Source of the DNA: Candidatus Bathyarchaeota archaeon
GTDB lineage: Archaea > Thermoproteota > Bathyarchaeia > Bathyarchaeales > Bathycorpusculaceae
Assembly: GCA_963717465.1 (NCBI GenBank)
Contig: OY970340.1
Location: 1,792,001 to 1,856,000, forward strand
Reading direction: 5' to 3'
Length of the DNA stretch: 64,000 bases
The notes beneath the pieces are model-generated. The model was not told where the DNA came from, ran no database searches, and saw only the letters and a list, made by a program, of their open reading frames with translations. Position numbers and translations under genes: made by a program. Positions 6,942 through 42,601 of the stretch are shown in pieces; within the stretch, counting starts at the first letter, position 1; each line of letters starts with the position of its first letter.

Positions 6942-6997
6942 TTTTAAGCCTCGAACCAATGAGGGATTGGAACCCGATTATAAAAATATTCGCTTAT

Positions 6998-15752: not shown

Positions 15753-18700
15753 ATGAATAAAAAAAATCCAATAAATGCAATTTGCATAATATTGTTGGTT
15801 ATCTTAGCATTCTCAATGGCTACTAACACGGCCTTTGCATCAGTAGTTAACAATAATGCTCCAGTTGTGGCAAGGATTTGGACTGACAAGCCAGATTATC
15901 ATCCTGGGACTTTGGTGACTATTTATGGGTCCGGTTTCACTTCGAATGGTTACATTTTCTTAAGTGTGACCAAGGAGAAGGATGAGTCCGTTACGAACTT
16001 ACATGCAAGAGCGGATTTAAACGGGGATTTTGTGGCTCATTATCAAATTGACAAACAAGGAGCTCCTCTCTACAAGATAGTAGCCACAGACGGGAAAACA
16101 ACCGCAGAAACAGTATTCACAGACTCAATGACAATTTCAACGCAGCCAATTTCAGCCCACATCGATAGTGGGCAATCGGCGACTTTATTTAGTGTTGTGG
16201 CTGGTGGTAATAGTCCGTATACATGGCAATGGTATGACGATTACGGAGCTATCTCTGGCGCCTCTGGTTCAGGCGACACGGCATCTCTGACTGTTTCAAC
16301 AGCGGATACGGGCATCTACGTAGATTTCACTGACAATTCACAGGCGACTATTCAGTCTGACCCTGTGGGTGTTACAGTTAATCCAGCGTTGAGTGAGACT
16401 GCTTCTGCTTCGCCAGCTGCTGTGGACGATGGTCAACCCATCAGTTTAACTGTTACTCAGACTACAGGTACTGGGTCTTTCACGTATGAGTGGCAGTATA
16501 GTACTGATGGTTTTTCTTGGAGTGATATTCCGTTTGATTCTGGTGATCAGAATCCTTATTTTGATTCTGCGGGTTATGGTGGTTCAGCGTTGGAGTTTCA
16601 GGTTAACGTTACTGATGGTACTGGTGCTTCTCAGATTTTCAGCACCAGCTTTGTCACTGTGAATATTGCTTTGAGTGAGACTGCTTCTGTTTCGCCATCA
16701 ACGGTGGGCGCTGGTCAAATCATCAGTTTGTCGGTTACTCAGGGTACTGGTACTCCTCGTTTCACGTATGAGTGGCAGTATAGTACTGATGGTTCAACCT
16801 GGAATGATATTCCTTTTGGGTCTGGTGATCATAATCCCTCGTTTGATTCTATGGATTATGCGGGTTACACGTTATACTTCCAGGTTAACGTTACTGATGG
16901 TACTGGCGCTTCTCAAATTTTCAGTGCAGGCTCTGTTGCTGTGGGCAGCGTGCTTTCTCAGACTTCCGCTTCCGCCTTTCCTGGCGCTGTTGACGATGGT
17001 CAATCAATCAGTTTATCAGTAGACACCTACACCACTGTCAATAGTCCTTACACGTATGAATGGCAATACAGCACAGACGGCGTCAATTGGTACGACATTC
17101 CGTCTGGGTCTGCTGATCAGAATCCTTCTTTTGACTCTACGGGCTATGCGGGTTTCACGTTGGAGTTTCAGGTTAACGTTACTGATAGTACTGGCGCTTC
17201 TCAAATTTTCAGTGCAGGCTCCGTCACCGTGAATACCGCGGACACTGGAGGCTCCACCCCCCCGGATAGTGGGTTGAGTGAGACTGCTTCTGCTTCTCCT
17301 GATGTGGTGGATGTTGGTCAAAGCATCAGTTTGTCGGTTACTCAGACTACTGGTACTGGTCCTTTCACGTATGAGTGGCAATACAGCACTGATGGTTTTA
17401 CTTGGAATAATATTCCATCTTCTTCATTGCAGAATCCAAGTTTTGATACGTCTGATTTGACAGCTGGCACCTACTACTTCCAGGTTACAGTTACTGATAG
17501 TACTGAGGATTCTGCTACCTTCTATACGAGCTCTGTTACAGTGAATGCTGTGTTGAGTGAGACTGCTTCTGCTTCGCCATCAACGGTGGATGCTGGTCAA
17601 AGCATCAGTTTGTCTGTTACTCAAAACACCGGCACTAGTTCTTTCTCGTATGAGTGGCAGTACAGCACAGATGGCGCCACATGGCAGGACATTCCCTCTG
17701 CATCTGGTGATCAGAATCCCTCGTTTGATTCTACGGATTATGCGGGTTACACGTTATACTTCCAGGTTAACGTTACTGATGGTACTGGTGCTTCTCAAAC
17801 CTTCAGCACAAACTCTGTTACTGTTGGCAGCGCGTTTTCTTCAACTTCCGCTTCCCTCTCTCCTAGCACTGTTGACGATGGTCAAAGCATCAGTTTATCA
17901 GTTGACGCTCCTACCACTGGTACTGGTCCTTACACGTATGAATGGCAATACAGCACTGGCGCTAGCGGTGAATGGCAGGATATTCCGTTTTGGTCTGCTG
18001 ATCAGAATGCAACTTTTGATTCTACGGGTTATGCTGGTTCAACATTAGAGTTCCAGGTTATAGTTAATGATTCTGCGTCGGCTCAATTTACTGTGTATGC
18101 AGGTTCCGTCAATGTGAATAGTGCTTTGAGTGAGACTGCTTCTGCTTCGCCATCAACGGTGGATGCTGGTCAAAGCATCAGTTTGTCGGTTACTCAGACT
18201 ACTGGTACTGGTCCTTTCACGTATGAGTGGCAATACAGCACTGGTGGCAATAATTGGCAGAATATTCCGTCTGGGAATGCTTCTGCTGCTACATTTAACA
18301 GTACGGGTTATGGTGGCGGCGCTTTGAGTTTCCAAGTTATAGTGACTGACTCTGCAGGTGCGTCGATTACGGTTGGCGCTGGCTCTGTCACTGTTAACTA
18401 TGCTTTGAGCGAGACCGCTTCAGTTTCTCCACTTGAAGTTGATATTGGAGAAGACATCAGTTTGTCTGTTACGCAGACCACCGGCACTCCCACTTTCACG
18501 TATGACTGGCAATACAGCTACAATGGAGTTGATTGGTCTGATACTCCTCTCTTTTACTCGCAAAACCCTGGCTTCGGACTCGGCGAGGACTATTTCCTTG
18601 CGGGAACTTGTTACTTCCACGTTATAATCACCGATAATACTGGTGCGTCGATTACGGTTGGTGCTGGATCTGTCACAATAAATAACGCTTTATATGAGAC

Positions 18701-21700
18701 TGCTTCTGCCTCACCATCAACGGTCGATGTTGGCCAACCAATCAGTTTGTCCGTCACTGAAAACACGGGCACCGCGCCTTACACGTATGATTGGCAGGTT
18801 AGCTCTGACGGCGGCTACTCTTGGAGTAATGTTACATCGGCTACAGTGCAGAATCCGACCTTTGATACATCCAGTTTATTTGCGGGCACGTACGAGTTTC
18901 AAGTCATAATCACTGATGAAACAGGCGCTTCTGCTATTTTCTACACTGGCTCCGTCACCGTGAATAGCGCGTTGAGTGAGGTTGCTTCTGAATCACCAAC
19001 CACAGCAGAAGCTGGACAAACAATCAGCCTATCAGTCACCCAATCAACAGGCACTGCTCCCTACACTTACGAGTGGCAATACAGCACTAACAGTAGCGTG
19101 TCTTGGGCGGATATTCCATCCGATTCCAGTTATCAAAATCCCTCCTTTGACACCACAAACTATGGAGGCCAACTCTTAGAGTTCCAAGTCATTATCACAG
19201 ATGGCGCAGGCGCTTCTCAAACCTTTACCACAAGTACCGTCCTCATAAACCCTGCAACCAGTGGGTTAAGCGAGACTGCTTCAGTCTCTCAGAGCGTTGT
19301 GGACGCTGGACAAACTGTTAATTTAACGGTTACTCAGACAACAGGTACCGGTCCCTTCACTTACGAATGGCAAGTAAGCACTGACGAAACAAACTGGAAT
19401 AACATTCCATTGTACTCACTGCAGAACTCAAGTTTTGATACGTCTGATTTGGCTGCTGGCACCTACTTCTTCCAAGTTATCGTCACTGATTCCACTGGCG
19501 CAACTGGCACCTTTAGCGCTGGCTCGGTTACAGTAAATTCTGCCCTGAGTGAGGTTGCTTCTGAATCACCAACCACAGCAGAAGCTGGACAAACAATCAG
19601 CCTATCAGTCACCCAATCAACAGGCACTGCTCCCTACACTTACGAGTGGCAATACAGCACTAACAGTAGCGTGTCTTGGGCGGATATTCCATCCGACTTC
19701 AGTTATCAAAATCCCTCCTTTGACACCACAAACTATGGAGGCCAACTCTTAGAGTTCCAAGTCATTATCACAGATGGCGCAGGCGCTTCTCAAACCTTTA
19801 CCACAAGTACCGTCCTCATAAACCCTGCAACCAGTGGGTTAAGCGAGACTGCTTCAGTCTCTCAGAGCGTTGTGGACGCTGGACAAACTGTTAATTTAAC
19901 GGTTACTCAGACAACAGGTACCGGTCCCTTCACTTACGAATGGCAAGTAAGCACTGACGAAACAAACTGGAATAACATTCCATTGTACTCACTGCAGAAC
20001 TCAAGTTTTGATACGTCTGATTTGGCTGCTGGCACCTACTATTTCCAAGTGATTGTTAACGATTCTGCGGGTGCAACAGCCACCTTCAATGCTGGCTCTG
20101 TTACGGTGAATTCTGCTTTGAGTGAGTCTGCTTATGCATCACCCGGCATGGTGGATGTCGGTCAATCCATCAGTTTATCAGTTACTGATTCTACGGGTAC
20201 TGGTCCTTTCACGTATGAGTGGCAGTACAGCACTGACAACGGTGTAATTTGGAATAACATTCCGTCGTATTCGGAGCAGAGCCCGACTTTTGATACGTCA
20301 GGCCTAGGATGGGGTGTCTACAGCTTCCAAGTCATCATTACTGATCAAACAGATGCGTCACTCACGTTGAGCACGGACCAGGTGACAGTGAATCCCGCTG
20401 TTGAAGCAGCTATTACTCCAACCTCAATTACCATGGATGTTGGTCAATCTGAAATTTTCACTGCTTGGTCGATAGGCGGCGCTGACTGCATTGGTTTCCA
20501 ATGGTACGTGAACGGTGTACCCCAAAGCGGTCAGGTCGGATCTACATTTACCTTTACGGCAACTTCAACAGTCGCTCCGTCCATAACCGTAACAACAACC
20601 GATGATTTAGGTCAAACTTCACCTCAATCATCATCTCCAACTATCACAATAAACCCAGGTTTGAGTGAGATTGCTTCTGCATCGCCGAGTGTGGTGGATG
20701 TTGGTCAACCTGTCAGTTTATCAGTTACTGATTCTACGGGTACTGGTCCTTTCACGTATGAGTGGCAGTACAGCACTGACGGCATAAACTGGAATGATAT
20801 CCCATCCTCGTCATCACAGAACCCGAGCTTTGATGCGTCAGGTTTGACTGCTGGCACTTATTATTTCCAGGTGATTGTTAATGATTCTGCGGGTGCGTCT
20901 GCTACTTTCAGCACTGGCCAAGTAACGGTGAATGTTGATCCTTCAATTAATGTGCAACCCTCTGCAGCCACCATTGATAGTGGGCAGTCTATTACTTTGA
21001 CTTCAACTGTGCAGGATGGTACTGGTTCATACTCTTGGCAATGGTTCGACAGCAGCGGCATAATTACTGGTGCATCTGGTACAGGAGCAACTGCTTCACT
21101 GCCTGTTTCAGCCTCTGACACCGGCGTCTTACGTAGTCTTCACTGACACCGGAGTAGCACCAATGGTGAATGTTAATTCAACCAGTGTTGATGTCACAGT
21201 TGATGCTGCACCCACAATCATCACTCAGCCTTCTAGGGCGTATATCGAGAGTGGGCAGTCTATTACTTTGACTTCTACGGTTCAGGGTGGTTCTGGCTCG
21301 TTCTCTTGGGCTTGTTATGATCATACTGGTTCTCTTGTCGGATCTGGCTCGGGGACAACTGCCTCGCAGGTAATCACAACTTCTGACTTTTATGGCTACT
21401 ACTTCGTCTTCACTGACACCGGTGTAAGTGCTGGTGCGACTCCAGCGTCAGCGGCGACTGTTACTTCAAACGGTGCTCCCGTTGTTGTTCTTTCTGCGCC
21501 CTCCGTTTACATTCAGCCTTCTTCTGTAACGATTGATAGTGGGCAGTCTATTACTTTGTCTTCTTCCGTGGAGGGTGGTTCTGGCGATTTCTCTTGGCAA
21601 TGGTATGATCAGACTGGCGCTATAGTGGGCGCTTATGGCTCGGGTACCACGGCTTCCTACACGTTTAGTTCTTTGAGTAGTGATGATGGTGTCTACGTGG

Positions 21701-24700
21701 TGTTCACTGATGTTTACGTTTCTTCTGGTGCTACTCCATCGTCGTTGGCGAGTGTTTCTTCTAGTAGTGTTGATGTTACAGTTGATTCTGCACCCTTAGT
21801 TTCCACTTCGCTTAATAGTGCGACGATTGACAGTGGTCAGTCTATTACTTTGACTTCTACGGTGTCTGGTGGTTCTGGCTCGTTCTCTTGGGCTTGTTAT
21901 GATCATACTGGTTCTCTTGTCGGATCTGGCACGGGTGCTTTTGCTTCGCAGTCGGTCTCAAGTTCTGATGCAGGCTACTACTTCGTGTTCACTGACACGG
22001 GTGTTTCTTCTGATGCGGCTCCAGCGGTAACTGCGTCTTCAAACAGTATAGCCGTTTATGTTAATGCGGCGCCCTACGTGAGTATTCCGCCTTCTTCGGC
22101 GACGATTTACAGTGGGCAATCTGCAAATTTGACTTCAGTTGTATCTGGTGGCAGCGGCGATTTCAACTGGCAATGGTATGACAACAGCGGTGCTATATCG
22201 GGTGCTTATGGTTCGGGTTCAACGGCTTTCTACTTGGTTTCAAGTGGTGACACTGGAGTCTACGTGGTGTTTACTGACACTGGCTTAACTTCCGGTGCGA
22301 CTCCGGATTCAACGGCAACTGCTTCTTCTAATAGTGTTGATGTTTCGATTGGTACTGCGCCTTCGATTAGCATTCAGCCTTCTTCTGCAGTTATTGACAG
22401 TGGGCAATCTATTACTTTGACTTCAACTGTGCAGGATGGTAGCGGCTCATTCTCTTGGCAATGGTATGATCAGACTGGTGCATTATCTGACGCTTACGGT
22501 ACGGGCACAACGGCCACTTACGTGTTTGGCTCTTCGGGCAACGGCACCGGAATCTATGTAGTCTTCACTGACACTGGCGTAACTCCGGCGGTGAATGTGG
22601 CTTCAAACAGTGTTAATGTTACTGTTGATGTTGCGCCTTCAATCATCTCTCAGCCCTCTTCCGCAACGATCGACAGTGGACAGTCGATAACTTTAACTTC
22701 AACGGTGTCTGGTGGAACTGGAACTTTCACTTGGACATGCTATACTCACACGGGCACTCTAGTTGGTTCTGGCTCAGGGCAGTCTGCTTCTCAGGTAGTC
22801 TCAACTGCTGACTCGGGTTATTACTTTGCGTTCACTGACACGGGTGTATCTTCCGGCGCGACCCCCACGGCAACCGCTCAGTCAAGCGGTGCTCAAGTTA
22901 TAGTTGACTCTGCACCCCAAATTAGCTCTCAGCCCTCTTCCGCAACCATTGACAGTGGACAGTCGATAACTTTAACTTCAACCGTGACAGGTGGCACCGG
23001 CTCATTCACTTGGAAATGTTACACCCACACAGGTGCTCAAGTTGGCTCCGGCTCGGGAACGTCTGCCTCGCAGATAGTCTCAACTGCTGACGCGGGTTAT
23101 TACTTTGTGTTCACTGACACAGGCGTATCTTCCGGCGCAACTCCCACGGCAACCGCTCAGTCAAACAGTGCTCAGGCTAGGGAGGATTCTGCTCCGTCAG
23201 TCAGCTCTCAGCCTTCTTCTGCGACTATTGACAGCGGCCAGTCTATTACTTTGACTTCTACGGTTCAGGGTGGTACTGGATCATTCACTTGGCAGTGGTA
23301 TAATCATGCGGGTACTGCTGTTGGTAGTGGTTCTTCTGGTACGACTGCTTCGCTTTCTGTTTCATCTGCTGATTCGGGTTACTATGTTGTGTTCACTGAT
23401 TCTGGAACTGGTTCTGCCACTCCAACCAAGACTGCTACTTCAAGCAGTGTTCAAGTTACCGTTGATTCTGCTCCGTCAGTCAGCTCTCAGCCTTCTTCTG
23501 CGACTATTGACAGCGGCCAGTCTATTACTTTGACTTCTACGGTTCAGGGTGGTACTGGATCATTCACTTGGAAATGTTACACCCACACAGGTGCTCAAGT
23601 TGGCTCCGGCTCGGGAACGTCTGCCTCGCAGATAGTCTCAACTGCTGACGCGGGTTATTACTTTGTGTTCACTGACACAGGCGTATCTTCCGGCGCAACT
23701 CCCACGGCAACCGCTCAGTCAAACAGTGCTCAGGTTGCTGTTGATTCTGCTCCTTCAATTGGTGCACAACCTGTTTCTGCTACCTTGGACAGCGGCCAAT
23801 CAATAACGTTGTCGTCTACGGTTACGAGAGGCACTGGTTCATTCACGTGGCAATGGTACGATCACAATGGCGTTGTAACGGGCGCCTCTGGAACTGGCGT
23901 ATCCGCTTCTTATGTCGTTTCAAGCGGTGACACGGGAATTTACGTGGTCTTCACTGATGCTGGTGTTAGTGCAGGTGCTTCTGGATCAAAGACTGCAACT
24001 TCAAGCACTGTTGATGTTACAATGAATGTCGCTCTAACAGTTTCTGTCAGTCCAGCTGGTCCAGTGACAATGAACATTGGACAAACTGAGACTTTTACAG
24101 CCAATCCATCTGGAGGCTCCGATAGTTACTCAACGTACACTTGGTATGTGAATGGCATCTCACAGAGCGGATATGATACATCGATGTTTAATTATACAGC
24201 CAATTCGTTAGGTTCTCTATCCATAACTGCTACTGTCACCGATAGTTTAGGAGTGACTTCATCCCAATCATCGACTTGCGATGTTACAGTCAACGATGTT
24301 GCTCCAACTATCACTGCCCCGGTCAATGTAGTAGCGTTCGCTAACAGCGCAGCAGGAGCCAGTGATGTCTCGTTAGGTTCTCCAACTGTTGGCAGCATCG
24401 CTTATTCAACTGCAGACTTATCAGTTACCAACAACGCCACCGCCATATTCCCAGTAGGCACAGTGACAGTTCTCTGGACTGTAACGGACCCAAGTGGACT
24501 AACTGCAACAGCCCTTCAAACCGTTATAATAAACCCATACTCGCCAACATCTTCATCTTCGCCGACACCAACACTTACCCCAACACCGACCCCTACTACA
24601 ACCCCAACGCAATACCAAACTTACACTGTGACCGCAACGGCACCCAACGGCACGGTCGTCAACGTCACAATCTATGGAGACATCAACAGCAGCCAAATCT

Positions 24701-25120
24701 CAAACATGACGATCTCAACATGTCAATCTGCAGCAACAACGGCTGTCTCTTTCACAATAACTGGTCAAAGCGGAACACAAAGCTTCCTTAACATGACAAT
24801 TTCAAAGAACGACGTATTCTATGGAACAGTGCCGGCAGTGAGCATCGACGGCAAACAAGCTGTTAACCAAGGTTACGTGCAAGACGCAAACAACTATTAT
24901 GTGTGGTTCTCAACAAGCTCCGGTACAAACCAGGTCTCAATACTATTTGCAAGGGCGACTAGGCAGCACAACTCCAGCATCCGCCAATGAGCCAGCTTTG
25001 GACTCATTTGCCCAATATCTATCCGTAGCAGCAGCATTAATAATCTTGGCAGCTATAATTGTAGGACTATTCGTGAAAAGAAGAAAAGACAGACAAAGCG
25101 GCATCACGATCTTAAACTAA
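15753..25120 (+). CDS. Giant (~3100 aa) cell-surface protein with tandem Ig/PKD-like repeats, HYR-like domain, PT linker and C-terminal TM anchor; frameshifts near 21129 and ~24950
   Basis: Signal peptide and AGGAG SD. Repeats TYEWQYSTDG and QPSSATIDSGQSITLTSTV. ORFs 15753-21146, 21070-24990 and 24899-25120 join; an extra T breaks the repeat consensus DTGVYVVFTD. Confidence 0.88.
18973..20040 (+). repeat. Near-identical tandem duplication with 573-bp period inside the surface-protein gene
   Basis: Sequence from 18973 recurs at 19546 almost unchanged for ~495 bp. Confidence 0.92.
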
Positions 25121-25131
25121 CGCGCATAGAT

Positions 25132-25168
25132 GGAACCTGTGTTCCAACGCCTTTTTTTAGCCTTTTTT
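25132..25168 (+). terminator. Putative terminator of the surface-protein gene
   Basis: GGAAC-ctgt-GTTCC hairpin followed by two T-tracts. Confidence 0.5.
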
Positions 25169-25287
25169 GTTAGGCATTCACCCATTATAAAATCTGCATC
25201 TACTACTCTCGATATTTGCGCAAACGCTGGCTCAAAAGCTGTTCTTTTGCCATATCTATAGTTTGTCATTCATTTGCGTTAGAGAAA

Positions 25288-25556
25288 TCAGAGATACATG
25301 ACTGCACAATAATTCTGGGTGATTACCTATGCAAAATGGGCTTCTTGACAAAAAATTGATTGATGACATAGAAAAAGCCAAGCAAACCAGAGTTGACATG
25401 CAATACTACGTTGCCCAAGAACTCAGCGAACGAGAAATTAAACGCACTGTTGAAGCCTCACGTAAATTTGTGCTAGACGTTGAAAAAGAGATGATGAATC
25501 TTACTGTTGAACAGATTGAAAACATTAATAAAATACGTTTCTCACGTAATTTTTAA
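25288..25556 (+). pseudogene. HEPN-domain protein, C-terminal half
   Basis: SEIHDCTIILGDYL, then after a 1-nt shift ...KAKQTRVDMQYY (HEPN Rx4Y-like motif). Confidence 0.8.
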
Positions 25557-25824
25557 AAAATATTTTTTGCAAAACTGCGTTTTTTCGTTAACCTGATTGA
25601 TTTCACACGACTCTGTGTCTGGCATATCAAAGTTTTACAGACAATTTGAGAATATTATGCTGATGCATTTTTACTGCCCTGACTTGGGAAACCGTCGTTA
25701 GCGCGTGCGTGCTTGAAATTTTATAGGTCTGTTAGTATTATATAACCTGAGCGGTTAGTCAGAGCAGGAAGCGCGCCCAAGCGCGAGCAACTGGCTAAGG
25801 AAGTTTGAAAGGAGAGTAAGCCAT

Positions 25825-28071
25825 ATGTCTGAAATCAAGAATGTGATTTGTGCAGTCTGTGACAAAGGATGCCCGCTTAAGGTCAAAGTAAACAACAATA
25901 AAATGGTTAGCGCCCAGGGACTTATGGATTCCAAAGTTATATGCATGAAACCTCAATTTGCAAATGATTACATCAATCATCCGCAAAGATTATTGTATCC
26001 ACTGAAGAACGTAGGCTCAAGAAGAGGAGAGCAAAAATGGAAACGTATCACTTGGGAACAAGCATTAGATGAAATTGCATTTAAGCTGGAAAAAATTATA
26101 AAAAAATATGGACCGGAATCATTCGCCGTTTCTACATTGCCAGTTAATGCAGGGGTAGATCAGGGAATGGTTCGAAGATTAATGAATCTGCTTGGTAGTC
26201 CGAACTGGATGAGCGGTTTATCGATGTGTATGGGTAATACTGCGCAGGTTCACAGAACTACTTTAGGCTGGTTCCCAATGGGTGATTATACACATGCAAA
26301 ATGCATTGTATATATTGGTCATAATCCACATGAACAAAACTGGGTGATGGAATACTATCAGCTATTGCAGGCTAAGGAACGAGGTGCAAAACTCATTGTT
26401 CTTGATCCACGCAAGTCACAGTGTGCAAATCTTGCTGACCTCTATTTACCCCTCCGTTATGGCACAGATGCCGCGATGCTCTTAGGTTGGCTGAATATAA
26501 TTATTAACGAAGAGCTTTATGACAAAAAGTTTGTTAAAAAATGGACAATTGGCTTTGACGAACTTAAGGAAAGAGTGCAGGACTATCCATTGGAAAAGGT
26601 TGCCAAAATAACCGACTGCAAGGCTGAGGATATCAAAAAAGCAGCCATGATGTATGCGACACAAGGACCTTCAATCATCCCTTGGAGTGTTAATTTTGAC
26701 ATGAATGTAAACAGTACATCCCTTATCCGCTGTCATAGTATTCTGGCTGCCATCTGTGGATATCTAAACAAAAGCGAAATGCTGGGCTATCTAAATCCTG
26801 ATGTTGTGACAATTTCAGAAGTAGAAATGCATGAAGCATTGCCTGACGAAAAGAAAAAGATACAGTTGGGAACCAAGACTTATCCATTATTTACTTATGA
26901 AGGCTTGAAAAAACTGAATGAACCCTCTAAAAGAGTGTATGGACGGGAGTACTGCAATGTTATATCCAGTTTCATGGCGCACCCACCTACGGTATTTAAG
27001 GCAATGCGAACTGGATCGCCATATGCTGTTAAGGCATTTTTTATCTTGGGCGGAAATCCACTGATGGGATATGCCAATCAGCAAGGTGTTTTTGAGGCAA
27101 TGAAAAATCAGGAACTGATTGTGAGCTTTGATCACCTATTAAATCCGTCAGCTCAATTGGCTGATTATGTCTTGCCTGGGGATGCTTGGCTGGAAAGACC
27201 ATCCTTATTTCCGCTATTCGATTTAGCGCCAATAGCCATTCCTTTTCAGCAAGCCCTTGTGTCTCCTGGAGAGTGCAAAGACTTGTATTTCTTCATTAAG
27301 GGTTTAGCGGATCGGTTGGGGTTAAAGGAATATTTTCCATGGAATAATCTTGTTGAGTTTATGGAATACAGAATTCAAAAATCAGGACTGAAATGGGAAG
27401 CATATGAAGAAACGCCGTTGAAGGAGTTAATGACTATATCTCAATTGTTTTCGCCATTTATGATGAAAAAGCCCATTACGAATAAAGCGATTTCAAAGGT
27501 CGGATTCATGCTGTCGTTGCCTTTTACAAAAGGTGTAGGGGTTGCCACTCCTTCGGGAAAAGTTGAGTTGAAAAGTAGTATTCTCGAAGGGCTTGGATAT
27601 GATTCGTTGCCTTATTATAAAGAACCACAACAAACCCCGATTTCAAATCCAAAGCTGGCTAAAGAGTACCCGTTGACACTGTTCATAGGATTGAGAGAAG
27701 GACCATACTATAATACCAATCTGCGTCATGTTGAAGGTTTAAGAAAGCAGTTGCCTAATCCCCTTGCTCTGATTCACCCGTCGGATGCTGCAAAATATGA
27801 TATTCAAGCAGGCGATTGGATTTGGGTTGAAACCACTCATGGCAAGGTTAAAATGATGGCGCAGCTTGATGAAGTTCAACCGGCTGGAACAATTCGCGTC
27901 CCACATGGATGGTGGTTGCCTGAGTTGGAACCTGGAGAGAAAACCGGATTTTCAGGTGCCATGTGGCATAATGATGGGTTGGTCATCAGTGATGATGATT
28001 GGAATCTTGACCCTGAACAGGGATTGCCAAATCTGAGAGGCGGATTACTGGCCAAGGTTTCGAAAATATAA
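25825..28071 (+). CDS. Acetylene-hydratase-like W/Mo-bisPGD [4Fe-4S] enzyme
   Basis: C9xxC12-D13-xxC16...C40MK Fe-S motif; GSPNW...MCMGNTA metal ligand; LRYGTDAA; DDDWNLDPEQGLPNLRGG C-terminus. Confidence 0.92.
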   Translation: MSEIKNVICAVCDKGCPLKVKVNNNKMVSAQGLMDSKVICMKPQFANDYINHPQRLLYPLKNVGSRRGEQKWKRITWEQALDEIAFKLEKIIKKYGPESFAVSTLPVNAGVDQGMVRRLMNLLGSPNWMSGLSMCMGNTAQVHRTTLGWFPMGDYTHAKCIVYIGHNPHEQNWVMEYYQLLQAKERGAKLIVLDPRKSQCANLADLYLPLRYGTDAAMLLGWLNIIINEELYDKKFVKKWTIGFDELKERVQDYPLEKVAKITDCKAEDIKKAAMMYATQGPSIIPWSVNFDMNVNSTSLIRCHSILAAICGYLNKSEMLGYLNPDVVTISEVEMHEALPDEKKKIQLGTKTYPLFTYEGLKKLNEPSKRVYGREYCNVISSFMAHPPTVFKAMRTGSPYAVKAFFILGGNPLMGYANQQGVFEAMKNQELIVSFDHLLNPSAQLADYVLPGDAWLERPSLFPLFDLAPIAIPFQQALVSPGECKDLYFFIKGLADRLGLKEYFPWNNLVEFMEYRIQKSGLKWEAYEETPLKELMTISQLFSPFMMKKPITNKAISKVGFMLSLPFTKGVGVATPSGKVELKSSILEGLGYDSLPYYKEPQQTPISNPKLAKEYPLTLFIGLREGPYYNTNLRHVEGLRKQLPNPLALIHPSDAAKYDIQAGDWIWVETTHGKVKMMAQLDEVQPAGTIRVPHGWWLPELEPGEKTGFSGAMWHNDGLVISDDDWNLDPEQGLPNLRGGLLAKVSKI

Positions 28072-28184
28072 AATGAAATGATTTTGATAATCCAATAAAA
28101 CTTGCTGTTAAACTTTAATGAACAGTAACCCAAATGGAATTTTATGCAGCATCATTAAAATTTTAAATCAACCACTTTTTATTG

Positions 28185-28592
28185 TTATAGGTCTCTTTGT
28201 TCTAACAAATAAAGCGAGTTTACTGCAAAGGGAACATGCCAGTGTGAAAAGAACCCTCTAACAGTTGCAACTGCCCCAACAGCACTTTTCTGACTCAACG
28301 TATCATCTGGGTTTTTGTTCAATGGCTGTTTAAGCACCCATTGCTTGAATGACAAAACCTTATGCTCCCATTTGTAACGCTGCTCGTCATGGCTTGTCCC
28401 GATATTACGCGTTGAAGTAGGTTGGTGAGACCGCTTTATTGGGTCCCAAGCGCGTATGATTTCTTTTAGTGCTTCCACTTCGTTGGTTTGCGTTTTCTTT
28501 GCTATACAAAGTCCTGATGATGCGTATACGTTTCGGAGTTTATCCATTCCGATGCTTTGGATGTCGTGGTAGGTATCTACAGTGTGTCCCAT
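28185..28592 (-). pseudogene. Tyrosine recombinase/integrase remnant (rearranged fragments)
   Basis: MGHTVDTYHDIQ resembles the MGH...Y catalytic end of archaeal integrases; AVATVRGFFS resembles an N-terminal core-binding segment. Confidence 0.55.
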
Positions 28593-28603
28593 TAACGGTT
28601 CGA

Positions 28604-28635
28604 GGTGGGATTCCCAACCACCAACAGTTATATCT
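28604..28635 (+). promoter_or_regulatory. Palindromic operator plus TATA box
   Basis: GGTGGGATTCCCAACC, 8-nt spacer, TTATATCT. Confidence 0.7.
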
Positions 28636-28667
28636 AATTTGCGTTCTAAAATGATAGGTGTAATTAT

Positions 28668-29498
28668 TTGAAAAAACTAGCTTCAATTCTCTTCACTAGA
28701 ATTCCATTGGAGGGTAACACTAAAACAAGGCTCACATTAAAAGAAGAAGGTGGGATTCTAACGTCTGAAGAAGCTGCAACATTCTATAAGGCTTCAATGA
28801 TGGATGTAATTGAAGTCTTTATAAAAGTTATAAAATCATTTAATGAAGAAAAACCCAACTTGGAAAACAAGTTATTCATTGCTTATGAACCTAAAGAAAA
28901 AGAAGAAAATCTAAAAAGAATACTTGAAAAATCGGATCTGCAAGGTTTATCAAATGATTCGATAGAGCTTTTTGCAACGAGCGGCAACAATTTCAATGAG
29001 CGTATTGCTATGTCTTTTGAATATGTTTTCAAAAAGGGTTATGAATCGGCAGTTATGGTTGGAGGAGACCACCCGCTTATTCAGCCACGCGTTATTAAGG
29101 AAGCATTTGAGCATCTTGAAAGATTGGAGAGACAATACCATAGAGGAGCAATCGTTGCTGGGCCATGCATAGCAGCAGGTCTTTATTTAATTGCACAAAC
29201 AAGCAACGTGCCCATTGACTTCAGAGATGTCTTCTATAATACTCAGGGTATAACATCCTTGGAAGTTTATACCAAAAAAGCCATTGATACACAAGTTCCT
29301 TTTGCAATCCTCGAATTGGTTACCGACGTTGATGTGCCATCTGATTTAGCTGCTTTAGTAGTGAATCTTAGATCTATGGATTACGCTTCTGAATTTCAAC
29401 CAAGCCTCAATCTGCCACGGCATACACTATGGTTCATAAAAAAACTCAACCTTAGTATAATTACCCCTCCAAACCAAAGAGATATAACGCTTCATTAG
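28668..29498 (+). CDS. DUF2064 / TIGR04282-like CofC/MobA-fold transferase
   Basis: FTRIPLEGNTKTRL, MVGGDHP, GPCIAAGLYLI and DVDVPSDL motifs. Confidence 0.8.
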   Translation: MKKLASILFTRIPLEGNTKTRLTLKEEGGILTSEEAATFYKASMMDVIEVFIKVIKSFNEEKPNLENKLFIAYEPKEKEENLKRILEKSDLQGLSNDSIELFATSGNNFNERIAMSFEYVFKKGYESAVMVGGDHPLIQPRVIKEAFEHLERLERQYHRGAIVAGPCIAAGLYLIAQTSNVPIDFRDVFYNTQGITSLEVYTKKAIDTQVPFAILELVTDVDVPSDLAALVVNLRSMDYASEFQPSLNLPRHTLWFIKKLNLSIITPPNQRDITLH

Positions 29499-29616
29499 AG
29501 GGTAACAGATACTGGAATACACGCTTAAGACTTAGAATAATTGGCACTTAATGACCTTCAGAATTTAGCCTCGTATAAAAAGAACAAGAGAAAGGAAAAG
29601 CGAACGGTTTAAGGTA

Positions 29617-29886
29617 ATGCCTGAACAAAGAATAGTGGTAAAGGATGGCTGCATTACTTGAATCTCAGAGAAGTTAAAAACAGAACAAGAGATTCTTGAT
29701 TGGCTTAAGTCAAACTTTGGTGAGAGCTCGAATCTGTTTATCTCTGAACTGGATTTGTACTTTCCTCAAATTGATAAATATTTCCATTTTCTTGAATCTG
29801 TAAACGATCTCTTACTTTCAATGGATAAACTCTCAGAAGAAGCGTCTGAAATACTCAAAAATTATTATCCATTTTCAAGTTGTTAA
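29617..29886 (+). CDS. Candidate small selenoprotein (89 aa, CxxU at codons 12-15; not in ORF track)
   Basis: MPEQRIVVKDGCIT-TGA(29659)-ISEKLKTEQEILDW...PFSSC*; frame stays open for 74 codons after the TGA. Confidence 0.4.
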
Positions 29887-29974
29887 TAATATTTTTTGGA
29901 TATTTTTTCTTTGAGTTCTATTGCGCGCTGGCATTTCATAACTCTCAAAATTCTGCATAACGCAAGTGGTTTGC

Positions 29975-30006
29975 GGTAGGATTCCCAACCACCAACCATT
30001 ATATCT
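29975..30006 (+). promoter_or_regulatory. Palindromic operator plus TATA box
   Basis: GGTAGGATTCCCAACC, 8-nt spacer, TTATATCT; same spacing as the 28604 copy. Confidence 0.7.
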
Positions 30007-30089
30007 GATTGCCTGAATAGACCCCTTTGTAGGAGATAAGAACCTATTAAAAATATAAAAGGTGAAAAAAAACGAAAGACACTACTGAA

Positions 30090-32366
30090 ATGACTGAGCA
30101 AAAGAAGTTCTTATGTGCATTCTGTGGAGTTCAGTGTGAAATCCTTGCTACTGTTACAAAAGATGGATTCCTGACTGCTGTCGAGCCTCGGCCCGATCAT
30201 CCAATTAGCCCCGGAGCATATTGTCGAAGGTGGACTTATTATACAGAATACCTATACAAATCAGACCGCCTCAAATATCCTATGAAGAGAGTTGGAAAAC
30301 GAGGCGAAGGCAAGTGGCAGATAATTTCATGGGAACAAGCATTTGACGAAATAGGTGCTAGACTCAGGGAGATAATTGCGAAATACGGCTCAGAAGCAAT
30401 ATACGTTTGGCACGGAACATCCCGTGGAAACCCATATGCAGGAGATACAAAGTTCGTTCGCGCAATCGGAAGCCCAGCTATCGGAGCTCCTGGAGCTGAA
30501 ATCTGATTTGCGCCCAACGTCCGTAGTTTAGGGATAACTTACGGCGTTGGACAATGCCTATCTACAGTGATACCTGGCGTAACGAAATCCATGTATAGCA
30601 CGTTCAATCATACTGAATCAAGTGAATTTATCTGGCCGATGTATCTTCGCGCAATTGAAGCGGGAATGAAGCTTATAACACCAGACCCTAGATTCACTGA
30701 GGTTGTTCGTAATTCTGCCCTCTGGCTTCAGATAAGACCAGGTACGGATGCTGCACTCAACTTGGGCATAGCACATGTGCTCATCGAGGAAAATCTCTAT
30801 GACAAAGAGTTCGTGGAGAAATGGTGTTATGGTTTCGAGCAATTGAAGGAACGCGTCAAAAACTACACACCTGAGAAAGTTGAGGAGATCACTTGGGTTC
30901 CAGCGGACAAAATCAGAGAGGCAGCAAGGACACTGGCAAACAACAAACCACAGTCGGTTCCATTACTAAACTATGGACATACTGAGCCATTCTCAAATAG
31001 CTGGGGAATCAATCGTTCGCGGCACATTCTACCCGCGCTGCTCGGAACCGTTGACGAAGAAGCTGGCGAAACGATGCCAAGCAAACCAAAATGGCGCACT
31101 CTCGAAGATTTCGACGAGCCTGACATCATGCCCATGGGACAAAGAAAGAAATTCCTGAATACTTGGAAAAATCACAAATTCGGAATGGTAGGCTGGGAAG
31201 TTCAAGAATTAATTGGTCAAGCCCAAACCAGAGGATACTGGAAAGGAAACCCATATCTTGGATGCACAGAAGTACATGGATACTTAATGACTCCTTGGAA
31301 TCTAGTAACTCGGTCTGTTCTCGAAGGCAAACCCTACCCTATAAAAGCTTTCATAGGACATCAAGGTTCTGCTCTCAGATGCGGACCCAACCAGAAACAG
31401 GCTCTTGAAGCACTGAAACAAATCGAATTCTACGTTAACATGGACACTTCAGTCATGACTCCCGATGCGATGATGGCAGACTATGTATTACCAGCTGCAA
31501 GTACAGCTGAAAGACCCATGGTCGACCTTATGATTAGTAATGCTTCAGAAATGATCTTTAACGCAAGTGCAGACGCGGTTATTCCGAAGAAAATACCAGG
31601 TCTGTGGGATCACAAGGAAGACTATGAAATGTGGCGGGAATTTACAAAGGCAATCAAGGGTCAAAAATGGATAGATGAGCACTGGCCTCAAAAGAACTAT
31701 TACGAACATTATGAGTGGGTATTCAAACCGGCAGGTATGACGCTTAAAGAAGTCGCTGAGAAGACCCCTATCCTTCCAATATTGGAACCAAGAAGATACG
31801 CGTTGCCAGACTCAGAAACTGGTGAGCCAAGAGGATTCGGAACACCCTCTGGAAAGGTCGAACTATACTCAACAATAGCTGAGAAAGTCGGATGCGACCC
31901 AATGGGTAACCATACAGATCCAGCAGCAAGTCCTTACAGCACGCCAGATATCGCAGCGGAATATCCATTTATTCTGACAACTGGAGCTAGACATGGAGAA
32001 ATGTTCCACGGCGAATTATTCGAGATTAGTATGGCGCGTAAAATAAGACCAGACCCAATTGTACAGATTCATCCAATGGCTGCTAGACAGCTTGGCATAG
32101 CAGAGCACGACTGGGTTTGGATTGAGACACCAACAGGAAAAATCAGGATGAGAGCTAAACACTACGAAGGTCTTGATCCGAAAGTAATTGCATGTGAACA
32201 CGGCTGGTGGTTCCCAGAGGAATCAGGTGAACTTCCTAATCTATTCGGCGTCTCCAGATCAAACGCAAGCGTTCTTGTAGATGATGACCCATTGCATTGT
32301 GACCCAGCAACATCAGTATGGGCAAATAAAGCGATGCTTTGCAAGGTATACAAAGCACCATTTTAG
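30090..32366 (+). CDS. Mo/W-bisPGD oxidoreductase (acetylene hydratase/catechol dehydroxylase-like clade), probable selenoprotein with Sec139, 758 aa
   Basis: ORFs 30090-30506 and 30567-32366 are in the same frame, separated only by TGA 30504-30506 in GSPAIGAPGAEI-U-FAPN, which aligns with the Cys ligand of the neighbouring paralog. Confidence 0.85.
30514..30550 (+). promoter_or_regulatory. Bacterial-type SECIS-like hairpin in the coding sequence just 3' of the UGA
   Basis: CCAACG/CGTTGG, CCGTA/TACGG, GTT/AAC, bulged U, A-U, GGGA loop; 24 nt between UGA and loop. Confidence 0.7.
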
Positions 32367-32457
32367 ACAAAGAAGGCCCAATATCCCCCATTTTCTTTTG
32401 TTTCAAATAAAGAATGATTCCGTAAAAAGAATTAGGTGTAACGGTAGGTGATAAGAC

Positions 32458-32799
32458 ATGTCAGAAAAAGAAAAAAAAGCAGAAGAAGTTGCAAATGAAT
32501 TCAGTGCCAAACTTGCTAAACAAACTGAAAAACTCAAAGGCTGGGGCAAAGCAGTCCAGATCGACTTCACTGACGTAGGTGTTTCGTACTGGTATAAATT
32601 TGGCATGGATGGCAAAGTTGAAAAAAGAGAGAAAGCTGACAAGAGAAAAGAAGCCGAAGGAGTAATCAAGGCAACAACAGACATATTTAGAGATTTGATG
32701 AATAATAAAATTAACCCGATGACTGCAATTATGAAAGGCACTATAAAAGTTGAAGGAAGCGCGAATGCCATAATGAAAGTCGGCAAAACTCTAAGTTAG
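32458..32799 (+). CDS. SCP2 sterol/lipid-binding domain protein
   Basis: DIFRDLMNNKINPMTAIMKGTIKVEGS is typical of SCP2 domains; AGGTGA SD. Confidence 0.85.
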   Translation: MSEKEKKAEEVANEFSAKLAKQTEKLKGWGKAVQIDFTDVGVSYWYKFGMDGKVEKREKADKRKEAEGVIKATTDIFRDLMNNKINPMTAIMKGTIKVEGSANAIMKVGKTLS

Positions 32800-33122
32800 C
32801 TTGAAACAACATCACTTTTTTTTCTCATTTGAATAACTCACACTCTCGTCTTAATTGCATAAAGCATTGCAGAACAAGTAAATGGACGTAACTTTGAAAC
32901 CCCGGGCAAAAAGATAATTTCCTTTGGCATTCTTATTTTTGTCGCATCCTTAGGCAATAGATTTCTCTCCTAAAAACCAAATTGCTTTTCATCAGTGAAT
33001 GCATTCTGCTAGAAAATTAAAGGTCTCATCAAACAAGCGTGTGCGATAGAAAAACCGATTACTGCTTATATTTCTGATCAACTTGCAGTCTAACTTTCAT
33101 CAACATTTGAATCAATTTGAGA

Positions 33123-33464
33123 TCAAGGAGCCTTAATGAAATGCTGTACTTTTGCTCCCTCATTGGTCGCCACTCTGACGAAATATGTTTTACCGCTAAT
33201 CCAATCAAAAGTAGTTGTGCCACTAGAAACTGCATTTGGTGCAATTGATGATGAATTCCAAACAACATCAGCACCAATGTCGTCGAAAGTAGTTGATTCG
33301 CGTATGAAAACCTTGGACAACAAAGAACCAGCAACTGGACCCGTATTCTTTACACTAAACTTAAATTGTTTAGGAGAGCCTTCCGTGACAACAGCTTCTA
33401 AAGTCTCAAACACCAGAATGGGTTCTTTTCTCGTAGCCTGAATGCGGTTAAAACACAAATCCAA
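33123..33464 (-). CDS. Possible archaeal pilin-like C-terminal domain lacking the prepilin N-terminus
   Basis: VKNTG and W-x-SG-x-TY-x-V-x-V-x-T-xx-G...AP pattern; no class III signal peptide. Confidence 0.35.
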   Translation of the reverse strand: MDLCFNRIQATRKEPILVFETLEAVVTEGSPKQFKFSVKNTGPVAGSLLSKVFIRESTTFDDIGADVVWNSSSIAPNAVSSGTTTFDWISGKTYFVRVATNEGAKVQHFIKAP

Positions 33465-33509
33465 CCACCTGTTATATCTCTCATTTCCCCCCCATTTTTA
33501 AGGGTAAGC

Positions 33510-33525
33510 GGTGGGATTTCCATCC
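33510..33525 (+). promoter_or_regulatory. Third operator copy, upstream of the trmB-like gene
   Basis: GGTGGGATTTCCATCC. Confidence 0.6.
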
Positions 33526-33583
33526 GCAATACGAAGGATTTTAATGTAACCTGAGGTTATTTGAATGAAGGAGACTGCACAGA

Positions 33584-34411
33584 ATGATTTGGGAAGCTGT
33601 GCAAGATGAGGATGTCGATAATCTAATTAAAGCTGGACTTACATCGGGTCAAGCTAAGGTATACCTTGCACTAGTTCTATTGCAGAAAGCAACAATTTCA
33701 GAAATATCGAAAAAGGCGAAAGTAGATAGGGCTGACACGTATCGCTTAGTAACCGAGCTTGAAGAAATAGGATTAGTTGAAAGAATAATAGCCAAACCGA
33801 ATTTTTTAGTTGCTGTTCCTATAAAAGATGGGCTATCAACTTTGCTCGATAACAAAAAAAAGGAATACACCGAAATGAGCAATGCTGTGAGCGAATTACA
33901 GCAAAAGTTCAAAGCAATTGTGGATAAAAATAGAGATGGGAAAATAAGCCAATATATTCTGATTCCTCAAGGAAACCAAATTATTCGCAGGTTAAGAGAA
34001 ATAGTTGAGAAATGTCAGAAAAATATATGTTGTACTGTTACATGGAAAGAGTTCTCGAAGAATAACGCGCTTCATTTAGTTCTGGCTCTAGATATTGAGA
34101 GGGCAATGAAGCGAGGGATAAAGTTTCAATTTTTGGTTAATGAAAATAGTAAGTCATCATGGCCAAAGAGTACTAAAAGGTTAGCAAAAAATCCAAACTT
34201 TGAGATCCGAACCTTGTCTGCTGTGCCTTTCATGTTTGCAATGTGCGATAGTAGCGAAATCTATATACCTCAAACTCAAGGGGGACTTCAAGAATATCCT
34301 GCGCTTTGGTCAAATAACCCTATAATCGCAGGGCTTGCTAAAAGCTACTTTGATAAACTTTGGAATGAGGGTACCCCTGCTGATTTACGTTCTAAAACTG
34401 GCTCCAAATGA
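33584..34411 (+). CDS. TrmB-family transcriptional regulator
   Basis: GLTSGQAKVYLAL...YRLVTELEEIGLV wHTH; C-terminal YFDKLW effector domain. Confidence 0.9.
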   Translation: MIWEAVQDEDVDNLIKAGLTSGQAKVYLALVLLQKATISEISKKAKVDRADTYRLVTELEEIGLVERIIAKPNFLVAVPIKDGLSTLLDNKKKEYTEMSNAVSELQQKFKAIVDKNRDGKISQYILIPQGNQIIRRLREIVEKCQKNICCTVTWKEFSKNNALHLVLALDIERAMKRGIKFQFLVNENSKSSWPKSTKRLAKNPNFEIRTLSAVPFMFAMCDSSEIYIPQTQGGLQEYPALWSNNPIIAGLAKSYFDKLWNEGTPADLRSKTGSK

Positions 34412-34544
34412 GCTCGAAGCGCATGCGAGATGTAACCGTGAATCCTCTTTTTTCAAGTTATAATTTATAAAATTTTAGGTGCGCTTGGCTATGGGAAAAA
34501 TGAGATATATCTAATATTGGTTTCGAAATAATAAGTACAATTAT

Positions 34545-34813
34545 TTGAAGAAATTAACCTCAATTCTTTTCACTAGGGTTCCATTGCCAGGTTACACTAA
34601 AACACGGCTTGCACTAAAAGAAGAAGGTGGATTTCTTACACCTGAAGAAGCTGCAACATTCTACAAGGCTTCGTTGATAGATACAATTGAAGTCATTTTG
34701 AAAGCAAAATCATTCAAAGAAGAAAAATCCAACTTGGAAAACAAACTGTTTATTGCTTATGAACCAAAAGAACAAGAAGAAAAACTTGGAATTGCTTGAA
34801 AAATTGGATCTGC
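34545..34813 (+). pseudogene. Truncated paralog of the DUF2064-like gene at 28668
   Basis: MKKLTSILFTRVPLPGYTKTRL... is highly similar to 28668; nucleotide similarity ends at GGATCTGC (~34813). Confidence 0.85.
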
Positions 34814-34824
34814 GCCTATGTGAA

Positions 34825-34940
34825 GTCTGCTAATTAACCTTTCCTTCCTAAGCGCCCATGGCAGGGCTTCTTCAGACATCAGACATTCGGCTCAAAAGAA
34901 ACTCACCGCCTGAGCGTTTAAGTTTAGCGTTTGTCTGATG
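34825..34940 (-). ncRNA. Candidate structured RNA
   Basis: CATCAGACA/TGTCTGATG 9-bp stem enclosing GCTCA/TGAGC; second domain GTCTG/CAGAC enclosing GCCC/GGGC; TATA-like element ~30 nt upstream on the minus strand. Confidence 0.35.
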
Positions 34941-35073
34941 GTTTTTTTACTTAATACTTCAACTCTTGCCAAAATATATTTAATAATATCCGCTTATGCG
35001 TTATTTATAGGTCTTAAAACAATTTTTCCATCCATCGCTTTTATTTTGCTTCAAAAAATTTTTTGTTTTTTAG

Positions 35074-35241
35074 TTATCTTTTTTCTTGCGGGTTGTGGTT
35101 TTTTTCTTCTTGTTGTTTTAGTTGGTATACTGCGTATTCTATGGCGTGGCTTACGTCTTTGAAGCGTTTTTGTTGTATTTGTTTGGCGATCCAGTTCATT
35201 AGTTCTTTGTCGATGCTTATTGATCTTCGGATTTTGGGCAT
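35074..35241 (-). CDS. Ribbon-helix-helix (CopG-like) DNA-binding protein, 55 aa (not in ORF track)
   Basis: MPKIRRSISIDKELMNWIAKQIQQKRFKDVSHAIEYAVYQLK. Confidence 0.8.
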   Translation of the reverse strand: MPKIRRSISIDKELMNWIAKQIQQKRFKDVSHAIEYAVYQLKQQEEKNHNPQEKR

Positions 35242-35331
35242 GTACCATGCAGTTTACGTTTAAATTATTTATGTTTATTGTAAAATAATATGCGAAAGTA
35301 TTATAAGAGGTTATGTTGTAACACTAGTTAA

Positions 35332-35505
35332 ATGAGAACAGCCAAGCGATTGTATGTAGATGTTACGGCCAAACCACACGTGGAACGCCAAAAAATATTC
35401 AGAATGAACATGCAACAGATCGGTTTCGAAAAATTTATAAAAATCAATAATACCGATGCGAGAAAAGAAACGACATTTTACGTTTTTTGTTACAGCAAAG
35501 ATTAA
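35332..35505 (+). CDS. Small hypothetical protein (57 aa), probably leaderless
   Basis: TTATAAG ~30 nt upstream of ATG; divergent from the RHH gene. Confidence 0.45.
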   Translation: MRTAKRLYVDVTAKPHVERQKIFRMNMQQIGFEKFIKINNTDARKETTFYVFCYSKD

Positions 35506-41981: not shown

Positions 41982-42601
41982 CAAAATGCCTTTTTATCAA
42001 ATTGGGTTACAAAGTTTTTAGAATTAGCTTCTTTTACATCTTTCAAAAGCTCAAAAAACAAAATAAGAATCGTAAAAAAATATTCTTGTGGTCATCTTTC
42101 AAGCACTTGTTAAGTGCCCACAGGTATTAAGGGTATCCACGAGTTTTTTAGTGTGCCCGCAGTTAGTGCAATAAACTGAAACAGCTGTCCGTTCTTATTC
42201 ACTAAAAGGGTTTACGTGTTACCGCATTTCTCACAATCATATTGGCGGTGTCTAATCGAAATGATTTTTCTGGGTCATTAAAAAAAGAACATGACTGTTT
42301 TGTTTAAAAGCTTTGTTCTCCATCACCGATTAGAAGACTGGTGAAAAATCAGACAAACTCCATTTGGTGTCGTGTTTGGAAACAATGAAATGCCTTGGCT
42401 AGTATGTTAAGGTATTTTCTACCAAAAGACCGTTAGACCATTCAGTTGGAAATTAGCAAGTAGAGTTTTCATAAAGCTAATGTTATTTGATTTGAAAGAA
42501 CATAAAACCTCGGATTACTCCCAAATTATAACCTCCTTATTATTCTGTTTAATTGTCGTTAAAAAAAGCTTATAATGTGCCTGAAGTACATACGCTCAAG
42601 T

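Follow-up and report, generated by a model that had tools for sequence, protein, structure and literature searches.

Acetylene hydratase (AH) of Syntrophotalea (Pelobacter) acetylenica (Q71EW5, PDB 2E7Z, EC 4.2.1.112) is the sole studied enzyme of its subfamily, and its mechanism is disputed (PMC12096430, PMC6013536). It is reported to convert neither acetylene derivatives nor nitriles, and the replacement of a pocket isoleucine by alanine costs it much of its activity (PMC6013536). Its active-site residues include Ile113, Ile142, Trp179, Trp293, Trp472, Ala137, Met138 and Phe611 (PMC7970554), and its Asp13 has been called specific to an AH subfamily of uncharacterised proteins (PMC12096430). 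Inferences of acetylene use, in genomes as well as on the early Earth, have been drawn from homologues of AH, and archaea account for 5.95% of a broad AH family, with seven members in Asgard genomes (PMC10100899). As we read it, this 'AH family' is wider than the Asp13 group. The branch nearest to AH holds the catechol dehydroxylases of Eggerthella and Gordonibacter (Dadh, Hcdh, Cadh, Dodh and Cldh), Cys-ligated enzymes with a bis(molybdopterin guanine dinucleotide) (bis-MGD) cofactor that act on varied organic substrates (PMC7028382). Here we describe an AH-subfamily gene, encoding the protein P0001, in a window of 64,000 nucleotides from a Candidatus Bathyarchaeota archaeon (contig OY970340.1, positions 1,792,001 to 1,856,000). 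The gene is real and intact, and P0001 is a rare archaeal representative of a recognised subfamily that seems to be transferred sporadically; its function is predicted. The reading we favour, at a probability of roughly 0.6, is an AH-type hydratase that acts on another substrate and was imported as a single gene from anaerobic bacteria. Our searches of the open-access literature turned up no work on an archaeal enzyme with Asp13 or on the Lys14 variant described below.

The gene product and its active site

The gene is a single intact open reading frame (ORF) on the forward strand, with its ATG at 25825 and its TAA ending at 28071, and the N-terminus of the encoded protein is not extended compared with the cytoplasmic AH. 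PF00384 and PF01568 both score above cut-off and the fold search agrees, which places P0001 in the DMSO reductase (MopB) superfamily. Its top match in the PDB is AH itself (2E7Z, 875 bits; the runner-up scores 198 bits), and it shares 52.3% identity over 757 columns with Q71EW5 (P0152; the AH reference sequences P0147, P0148, P0150, P0151 and P0152 came from a cluster look-up). An AlphaFold model built on a 30-row alignment has a mean predicted local distance difference test score (pLDDT) of 90.4 and a template modelling (TM) score of 0.93 to 2E7Z; a second model from a 14-row alignment (mean pLDDT 53) was discarded. A preliminary description of this gene had called its product a close AH homologue with Asp13 in an archaeal host. 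These results bear it out, and all ten motifs that it quoted are found in P0001. Like AH, P0001 appears as a stand-alone subunit of the same fold; unlike AH, it has a changed pocket, a 25-residue insertion, a place in a separate clade and an archaeal host, and its activity is predicted only.

Residue numbers below are those of AH unless a P0001 position is stated. In alignment and model, P0001 has the AH fold, the four Fe-S ligands (Cys9, 12, 16 and 46), the metal ligand Cys141 (Cys135 in P0001) and equivalents of Asp13, Lys48, Trp179, Trp293, Arg606 and His676; Asp298 and Asp699 are kept as well. The number 141 given for the ligand Cys in the preliminary description is that of AH and not that of P0001. 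The marks of the AH subfamily are thus present (a four-Cys Fe-S motif with Asp13, together with C135, W173 and W287), and the six-residue hydrophobic pocket of bona fide AH, if Ile14 is counted in it, is not. The ring that reads Ile14, Ile113, Ile142, Trp179, Trp293 and Trp472 in AH reads K, V, M, W, W and F in P0001, so that four of its six positions are altered (Ile14 to Lys, Ile113 to Val, Ile142 to Met and Trp472 to Phe), and Ala137 to Gly, Met138 to Leu and Phe611 to Tyr are further swaps in the active site. By residue type, Ile14 to Lys is the sole non-conservative change in the pocket. This makes P0001 a natural pocket variant with a lysine adjoining the catalytic aspartate. Two of these differences, Ile142 to Met (M136) and a Trp to Phe (F465, at Trp472), had been named correctly beforehand; Ile14 to Lys, Ile113 to Val and the three further swaps had been missed.

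The insertion of about 25 residues that had been noted before GVGVATPSGK also stands, with a net length of 25 residues in the alignments. It is common to all members of the Lys14 subclade defined below, and because they all share it, we rejected an assembly error as its source. A membrane-binding helix found no support, as the best 11-residue hydrophobic moments reach only 0.32–0.58 and lie at differing places. Model confidence at the insertion of P0001 is below 50.

Next, we compared the pocket across relatives. A homologue search scored 8000 candidates, 1455 of which matched at E <= 1e-50, and the best 120 of these 1455, the query included, were compared. Asp13 is present in 116 of the 120, the remaining four being without the N-terminus, and Cys141, Trp179 and Trp293 are present in all 120. 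The complete AH ring occurs in one (the AH cluster itself) and Lys14 in three. The same holds for loci in named genomes, for which the best 80 of at least 567 relatives were taken: the Asp13-Cys141-Trp179-Trp293 core is found in 76, the other four being cut short, and the complete AH ring in none. These 80 include aerobic Proteobacteria and gut and rumen Bacillota, with no archaeon in their titles. As Asp13 is kept in nearly the whole subfamily and the ring is not, we rejected Asp13 as a marker of acetylene use, a step that the preliminary description had taken and that fails here. Asp13 alone cannot carry an inference of acetylene use from genomes. The uncharacterised AH-subfamily proteins in the literature show the same core with a variable pocket (PMC12096430; 'AH family' of PMC10100899). 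Other searches for relatives gave little: 63 matches among shorter proteins, none above 64% identity; no confirmed relative in 31 metagenome stretches; one distant locus in 172 stretches of a second metagenome scan; and generic family clusters in the ESM Atlas.

Phylogenetic position and predicted function

To place P0001, we built a FastTree phylogeny of 111 rows and an IQ-TREE phylogeny (LG+G4) of 43 of those rows, and the two agree. Sequences with Asp13 form a clade of 73 rows with a support of 100 in FastTree. In IQ-TREE, the true AH clade consists of the Syntrophotalea enzymes and P0019 (100/100, on a stem of 0.4), and P0001 forms a second clade (100/100) with L001 (the locus of P0002), P0003 and P0135. 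This Lys14 subclade comprises four 90% clusters (P0001, P0002, P0003 and the P0008/P0135 cluster) and is set apart from other AH-subfamily proteins by Lys14 and the insertion. It sits inside a 23-row group whose named members are Bacillota and Actinomycetota of gut, rumen and digester types. A 26-row clade unites the Lys14 group with true AH (100/100) and sets P0001 and AH off from the wider Cys-ligated family. The best tree places P0001 beside the true AH clade and not nested in it.

Because the core is kept while the pocket varies across the subfamily, we favour an AH-type hydratase with another substrate. P0001 would be a monomeric cytoplasmic enzyme that keeps AH chemistry. By analogy with AH, its bis-MGD tungsten (or molybdenum) centre would be held reduced and accompanied by a [4Fe-4S] cluster, Asp13 would be hydrogen-bonded to a metal-bound water and take an acid/base role, and water would be added across a triple bond to give an aldehyde or ketone. 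Judging from the residues, Lys14, Val107, Met136 and Phe465 may form a site that is wider and more polar than the tight, hydrophobic acetylene pocket. Our guess is that the substrate is an alkyne, substituted or anionic, for instance a short alkynoate, for which Lys14 could act as counter-ion and the insertion as lid, and the product may be taken up by unlinked aldehyde oxidoreductases or dehydrogenases of the host. Hydration of a related alkyne or other substrate had been offered in the preliminary description next to acetylene use; the former is what we favour, and the latter we regard as less likely. If P0001 acts on another substrate, it would give the AH subfamily a second reaction.

Several points weigh against this reading. 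The function of the Lys14 proteins is predicted, and we found no evidence favouring any particular other substrate. The Val, Met and Phe replacements in the ring are conservative, and the role given to Lys14 is read from the identity of the residue and not from the direction of its side chain. Seiffert reportedly described Ile14 in 2007 as completing the six-residue hydrophobic ring of AH, of which PMC7970554 names the other five residues. The ring varies even inside the true AH clade, where P0019, a protein known by its sequence and 82% identical to AH, has Tyr113 and Cys472. The 23-row group that parts the Lys14 clade from true AH has a support of only 83/93. In an approximately unbiased (AU) test, a joint clade of Lys14 proteins and true AH was 19.6 log units worse and was not rejected (p-AU 0.205), so that the phylogenetic check proposed in the preliminary description is answered in two ways: the best tree puts P0001 outside the bona fide AH clade, and the joint clade stands unrejected. 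Divergent AH homologues from an acetylene-fed enrichment have also been proposed as acetylene hydratases, in that case without biochemical proof (PMC7858054).

Were P0001 a true acetylene hydratase, the archaeon would make acetaldehyde, oxidise it to acetate with a tungsten-dependent aldehyde oxidoreductase (AOR) and reduce part of it to ethanol. P0001 is among the closest relatives of AH outside Syntrophotalea (52%, ninth by score of 124 sequences), every catalytic residue is kept, its model superposes on 2E7Z as given above, and both the shared 26-row clade and the AU test leave room for such an enzyme. We nevertheless regard it as unlikely, as four of the six ring positions differ, one of them now charged, P0001 is not nested in the AH clade, and the gene stands alone with no aldehyde-processing neighbour. 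Some genes of the host would fit an acetylene hydratase. WtpA (tungstate-binding) scores above cut-off in the host genome, which also has nine AOR-family matches at about five loci, four matches to zinc-dependent alcohol dehydrogenase (Zn-ADH) domains, one clear aldehyde dehydrogenase, one weak match to the Fe-ADH family and seven NTP-transferase matches that may include MobA; the AOR, Zn-ADH and aldehyde dehydrogenase genes are all unlinked to the AH-like gene. The host could thus load tungsten and remove an aldehyde, with families that are common and unlinked. The AOR and ADH families match many control genomes, none of them known as acetylene users, and because of this their presence is not diagnostic. 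The search for aldehyde-consuming genes that the preliminary description had called for gave these unlinked family matches in the genome and none beside the gene. A working AH with a naturally rebuilt pocket, in which acetylene fermentation was gained by one gene transfer with the tungsten AORs of the host acting downstream, is to us doubtful; it would prove the six-residue pocket dispensable for the reaction, and activity of P0001 towards acetylene would add archaea to the acetylene users. Two of the AOR-family matches (G000:C1 937961-938950 and 1264863-1265378, where G000 is the host genome) have one internal TGA each, which may reflect selenocysteine or a frameshift.

The catechol dehydroxylases suggest a different chemistry, in which P0001 would be a redox enzyme for reductive dehydroxylation or another two-electron step, with Asp13 donating the proton and a soluble carrier handling the electrons. 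Among characterised proteins, the dehydroxylases are the closest to AH (PMC7028382), and AH itself has been suggested to work by a redox-type mechanism (PMC12096430). Further, one member of the surrounding clade, P0013, carries a fused flavodoxin-like domain, although this could serve reductive activation only, and the selenocysteine paralogues of the host described below lie near corrinoid methyltransferases and flavin oxidoreductases. However, the Asp13-Trp179-Trp293 core, absent from most of the wider family, is intact in P0001, and no Fe-S or membrane partner gene adjoins. Catechol dehydroxylases are reductive and were likened to P0001 by description, not by sequence, and P0001 is far closer to AH than the cut-off of >30% that was used to collect them (PMC7028382). 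We consider a redox role quite improbable. The features behind the favoured hydratase reading, and those of the surrounding region, are collected in Table 1.

Table 1. Features of the AH-like gene, its product and its surroundings (window positions unless preceded by G000:C1, which refers to the host contig).
Feature	Position	Strand	Basis
AH-subfamily W/Mo-bis-pterin guanine dinucleotide, [4Fe-4S] enzyme gene, P0001, 748 aa	25825..28071	+	ORF, homology, model
Candidate archaeal TATA-box-like element	25738..25745	+	sequence reading
Putative Shine-Dalgarno-like purine-rich stretch, ATG 8 bases downstream	25810..25816	+	sequence reading
Fe-S motif C9, C12, C16, including Asp13 (25861-25863) and Lys14 (25864-25866; AH Ile14)	25849..25872	+	alignment
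C40, fourth Fe-S ligand (AH Cys46), and K42 (AH Lys48)	25942..25950	+	alignment
V107 (AH Ile113), altered pocket position	26143..26145	+	alignment
Metal ligand C135 (AH Cys141), codon TGT not TGA; M136 (AH Ile142)	26227..26232	+	alignment
W173 (AH Trp179), retained	26341..26343	+	alignment
W287 (AH Trp293), retained	26683..26685	+	alignment
F465 (AH Trp472), altered pocket position; Met in other Lys14 members	27217..27219	+	alignment
Insertion region, residues about 537-564, net 25 aa, low model confidence	27433..27516	+	alignment
DUF2064/TIGR04282-like gene, below NCBIfam cut-off; 69% paralogue elsewhere in genome	28668..29498	+	context
Second, distant family member, 31-32% identity, selenocysteine gene, without Asp13	30090..32366	+	in-frame TGA 30504-30506
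SCP2 lipid-binding domain protein, after selenocysteine gene	32458..32799	+	context
Selenocysteine machinery, two PSTK-SelB, two tRNA-Sec	G000:C1 845695-847067, 951672-954670, 2827783-2829723		

Origin and genomic context

A search of 401 genomes of the class at 1e-60 matched 27, the host included. None of the 39 genomes of the same genus matched at this threshold, and the best match among the 400 other genomes of the class had 41% identity. The four-residue core was found in one of the 24 class loci examined, L098. With AH as query, 12 of 401 phylum genomes matched at 1e-120, the P0001 gene at 52% and the other 11 genomes at 37–41%, and Asp13 occurred in none of the 12 other loci from this search. 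The close AH homologue reported in the preliminary description is therefore rare in archaea, being the sole match at 52% among the 401 phylum genomes. The L098 protein (genome G035, same class) is very divergent, with 37% identity to AH, and has Asp13, Cys141, Met142, Trp179 and Trp293. P0258, named Candidatus Bathyarchaeia, groups tightly in FastTree with L096 and L097, loci from the order of the host.

The nearest relative of P0001 lies in an uncultured Clostridiaceae genome (L001, 76% identity), where its gene stands alone between TetR regulators with no adjoining dehydrogenase. Genes of this type are sporadic in Clostridiaceae (1 of 284 scored genomes). The P0001 and L001 loci have a DNA similarity of 71.5% that is confined to the coding sequence. 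As no orthologue was found in the 39 same-genus and 400 class genomes, the AH-like gene is probably a single-gene import from bacteria, with an anaerobic donor, and probably old enough for part adaptation. It alone keeps Cys at the metal-ligand codon, at which 11 other family members of the host use TGA, and this fits a separate origin.

Alternatively, the gene could be an import that is silent or decaying, or a piece of bacterial DNA misassembled into the archaeal contig. In line with this, it was not found in the other class genomes searched, its codon use is on the deviant side (rank 80 of 91 genes of similar length), and the assembly has many split genes. We hold this to be very improbable. 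The ORF is full-length with all core residues kept, its third-position GC content (0.386) is near the host median (0.373) and far from that of the Clostridiaceae gene (0.247), GC is even across the region, and its flanking genes recur as paralogues at other places in this genome. The host is archaeal by the genes around it (Spt5, SecE, L10, L11 and DNA ligase), and the host assembly is one contig of 3.05 Mb that is 88% complete.

In the window, no dehydrogenase, Fe-S, membrane-partner or aldehyde-processing gene adjoins the AH-like gene. We rejected a phage or integrase origin for a short ORF at 28185-28592, which has no Pfam or PHROGs match. No Rfam family matched at cut-off in 24500-35500, where a metal-cofactor riboswitch was sought, and a structured leader upstream of the gene was rejected at a leader z-score of only 0.08. 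A sigma-70 promoter scan was uninformative, the host being archaeal.

We also surveyed the neighbours at 81 homologue loci, scanning 15 of the 31 commonest neighbour clusters. AH-subfamily genes are usually single genes beside a regulator, as at L001, and HxlR regulators are the most frequent neighbours (20 loci). In the clade near P0001, no conserved neighbour that names a substrate was found among these loci and clusters. A distant Proteobacterial group has as neighbours a short-chain dehydrogenase/reductase (SDR; 8), coenzyme A (CoA) ligase (6), enoyl-CoA hydratase (6) and thiolase (4), which hints at acyl-CoA chemistry for the Proteobacterial AH-subfamily proteins and not for P0001. At L033, L034, L054, L059, L060 and L070, a CoA ligase gene is found close to a Proteobacterial AH-subfamily gene; four of these loci also have a thiolase, a lead towards alkynoate breakdown. 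In Lachnospiraceae (L003:2678-5434, P0013 cluster), an AH-subfamily protein is fused to a flavodoxin-like/FMN-reductase domain, possibly a built-in reductive activator.

Selenocysteine paralogues and the rest of the window

Downstream of the AH-like gene, the ORFs 30090-30506 and 30567-32366 form one gene with a 758-aa product, whose TGA codon 139 falls at the position of AH Cys141; its protein database entry is a 575-aa piece (P0166). It is the most divergent of eleven host genes with TGA at the metal-ligand codon, three of which are also frameshifted. Asp13 is absent from all eight TGA paralogues that were aligned. TGA paralogues at L117, L121, L122, L124, L125 and L126 adjoin MttB- or MtmB-like methyltransferases, corrinoid proteins, NADH:flavin oxidoreductases and SDRs, and we infer that the family may couple demethylation to reductive dehydroxylation of aromatic compounds.

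The host has selenocysteine machinery of the archaeal type, with SelD, two PSTK-SelB fusions, SepSecS and two selenocysteine tRNAs (tRNA-Sec); no SelA scored above cut-off in its genome. The acceptor stem of a tRNA-Sec contains a U-U mismatch. PSTK-SelB fusions and this mismatch have been described for Bathyarchaeota (PMC8762117, PMC9499178). Together with the grouping of P0258, these traits indirectly make Bathyarchaeia the most likely class of the host. A second selenocysteine set of the host adjoins an SCP2 protein, a corrinoid protein and a RACo-type activator. SepSecS scored above cut-off in 12 of the 401 class genomes, and a TGA-paralogue query of the 11 other SepSecS genomes gave no match in nine and distant matches with no TGA listed in two.

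A hairpin lies in the coding sequence 6–7 bases 3' of each TGA, at 30514-30550 (+) in the gene of the window. Synonymous randomisations folded as well in 0 to 21 of 300 cases for the eleven TGA genes and in none for an MvhD-like gene; the value was 273 of 300 at the Cys135 codon of the AH-like gene, which served as control. selD is a misfit (95 of 300) and has no such hairpin signal after its TGA. Soon 3' of their stop codons, the eight intact TGA genes have AT-rich sequence with T runs, and no 3' element was seen there. Further likely selenocysteine codons, each followed by a strong hairpin, lie at G000:C1 1520441 (-), in an MvhD-like motif, and 2823439 (-), in an unidentified ORF near the second PSTK-SelB.

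The selenocysteine gene of the window is flanked by the DUF2064/TIGR04282-like gene at 28668-29498 and a 78% identical fragment at 34545-34799 (+). SCP2 and TrmB genes lie between these two copies, and a third copy is found at C1 735701-736529.

Elsewhere, ribosomal protein L1 is split at 6292-6959 (-) of the window, as are a ClpB-like gene and UvrB at L120 and L123, and the assembly therefore probably has many indel errors. Two very long ORFs with immunoglobulin (Ig)/PKD repeats (1797 and 1306 aa) overlap in different frames at 15753-24990 (+) and probably represent a single giant surface protein interrupted by a frameshift. At 42575-44440 (+), the window encodes an OLD-family ATPase with a TOPRIM domain, as in some anti-phage systems.

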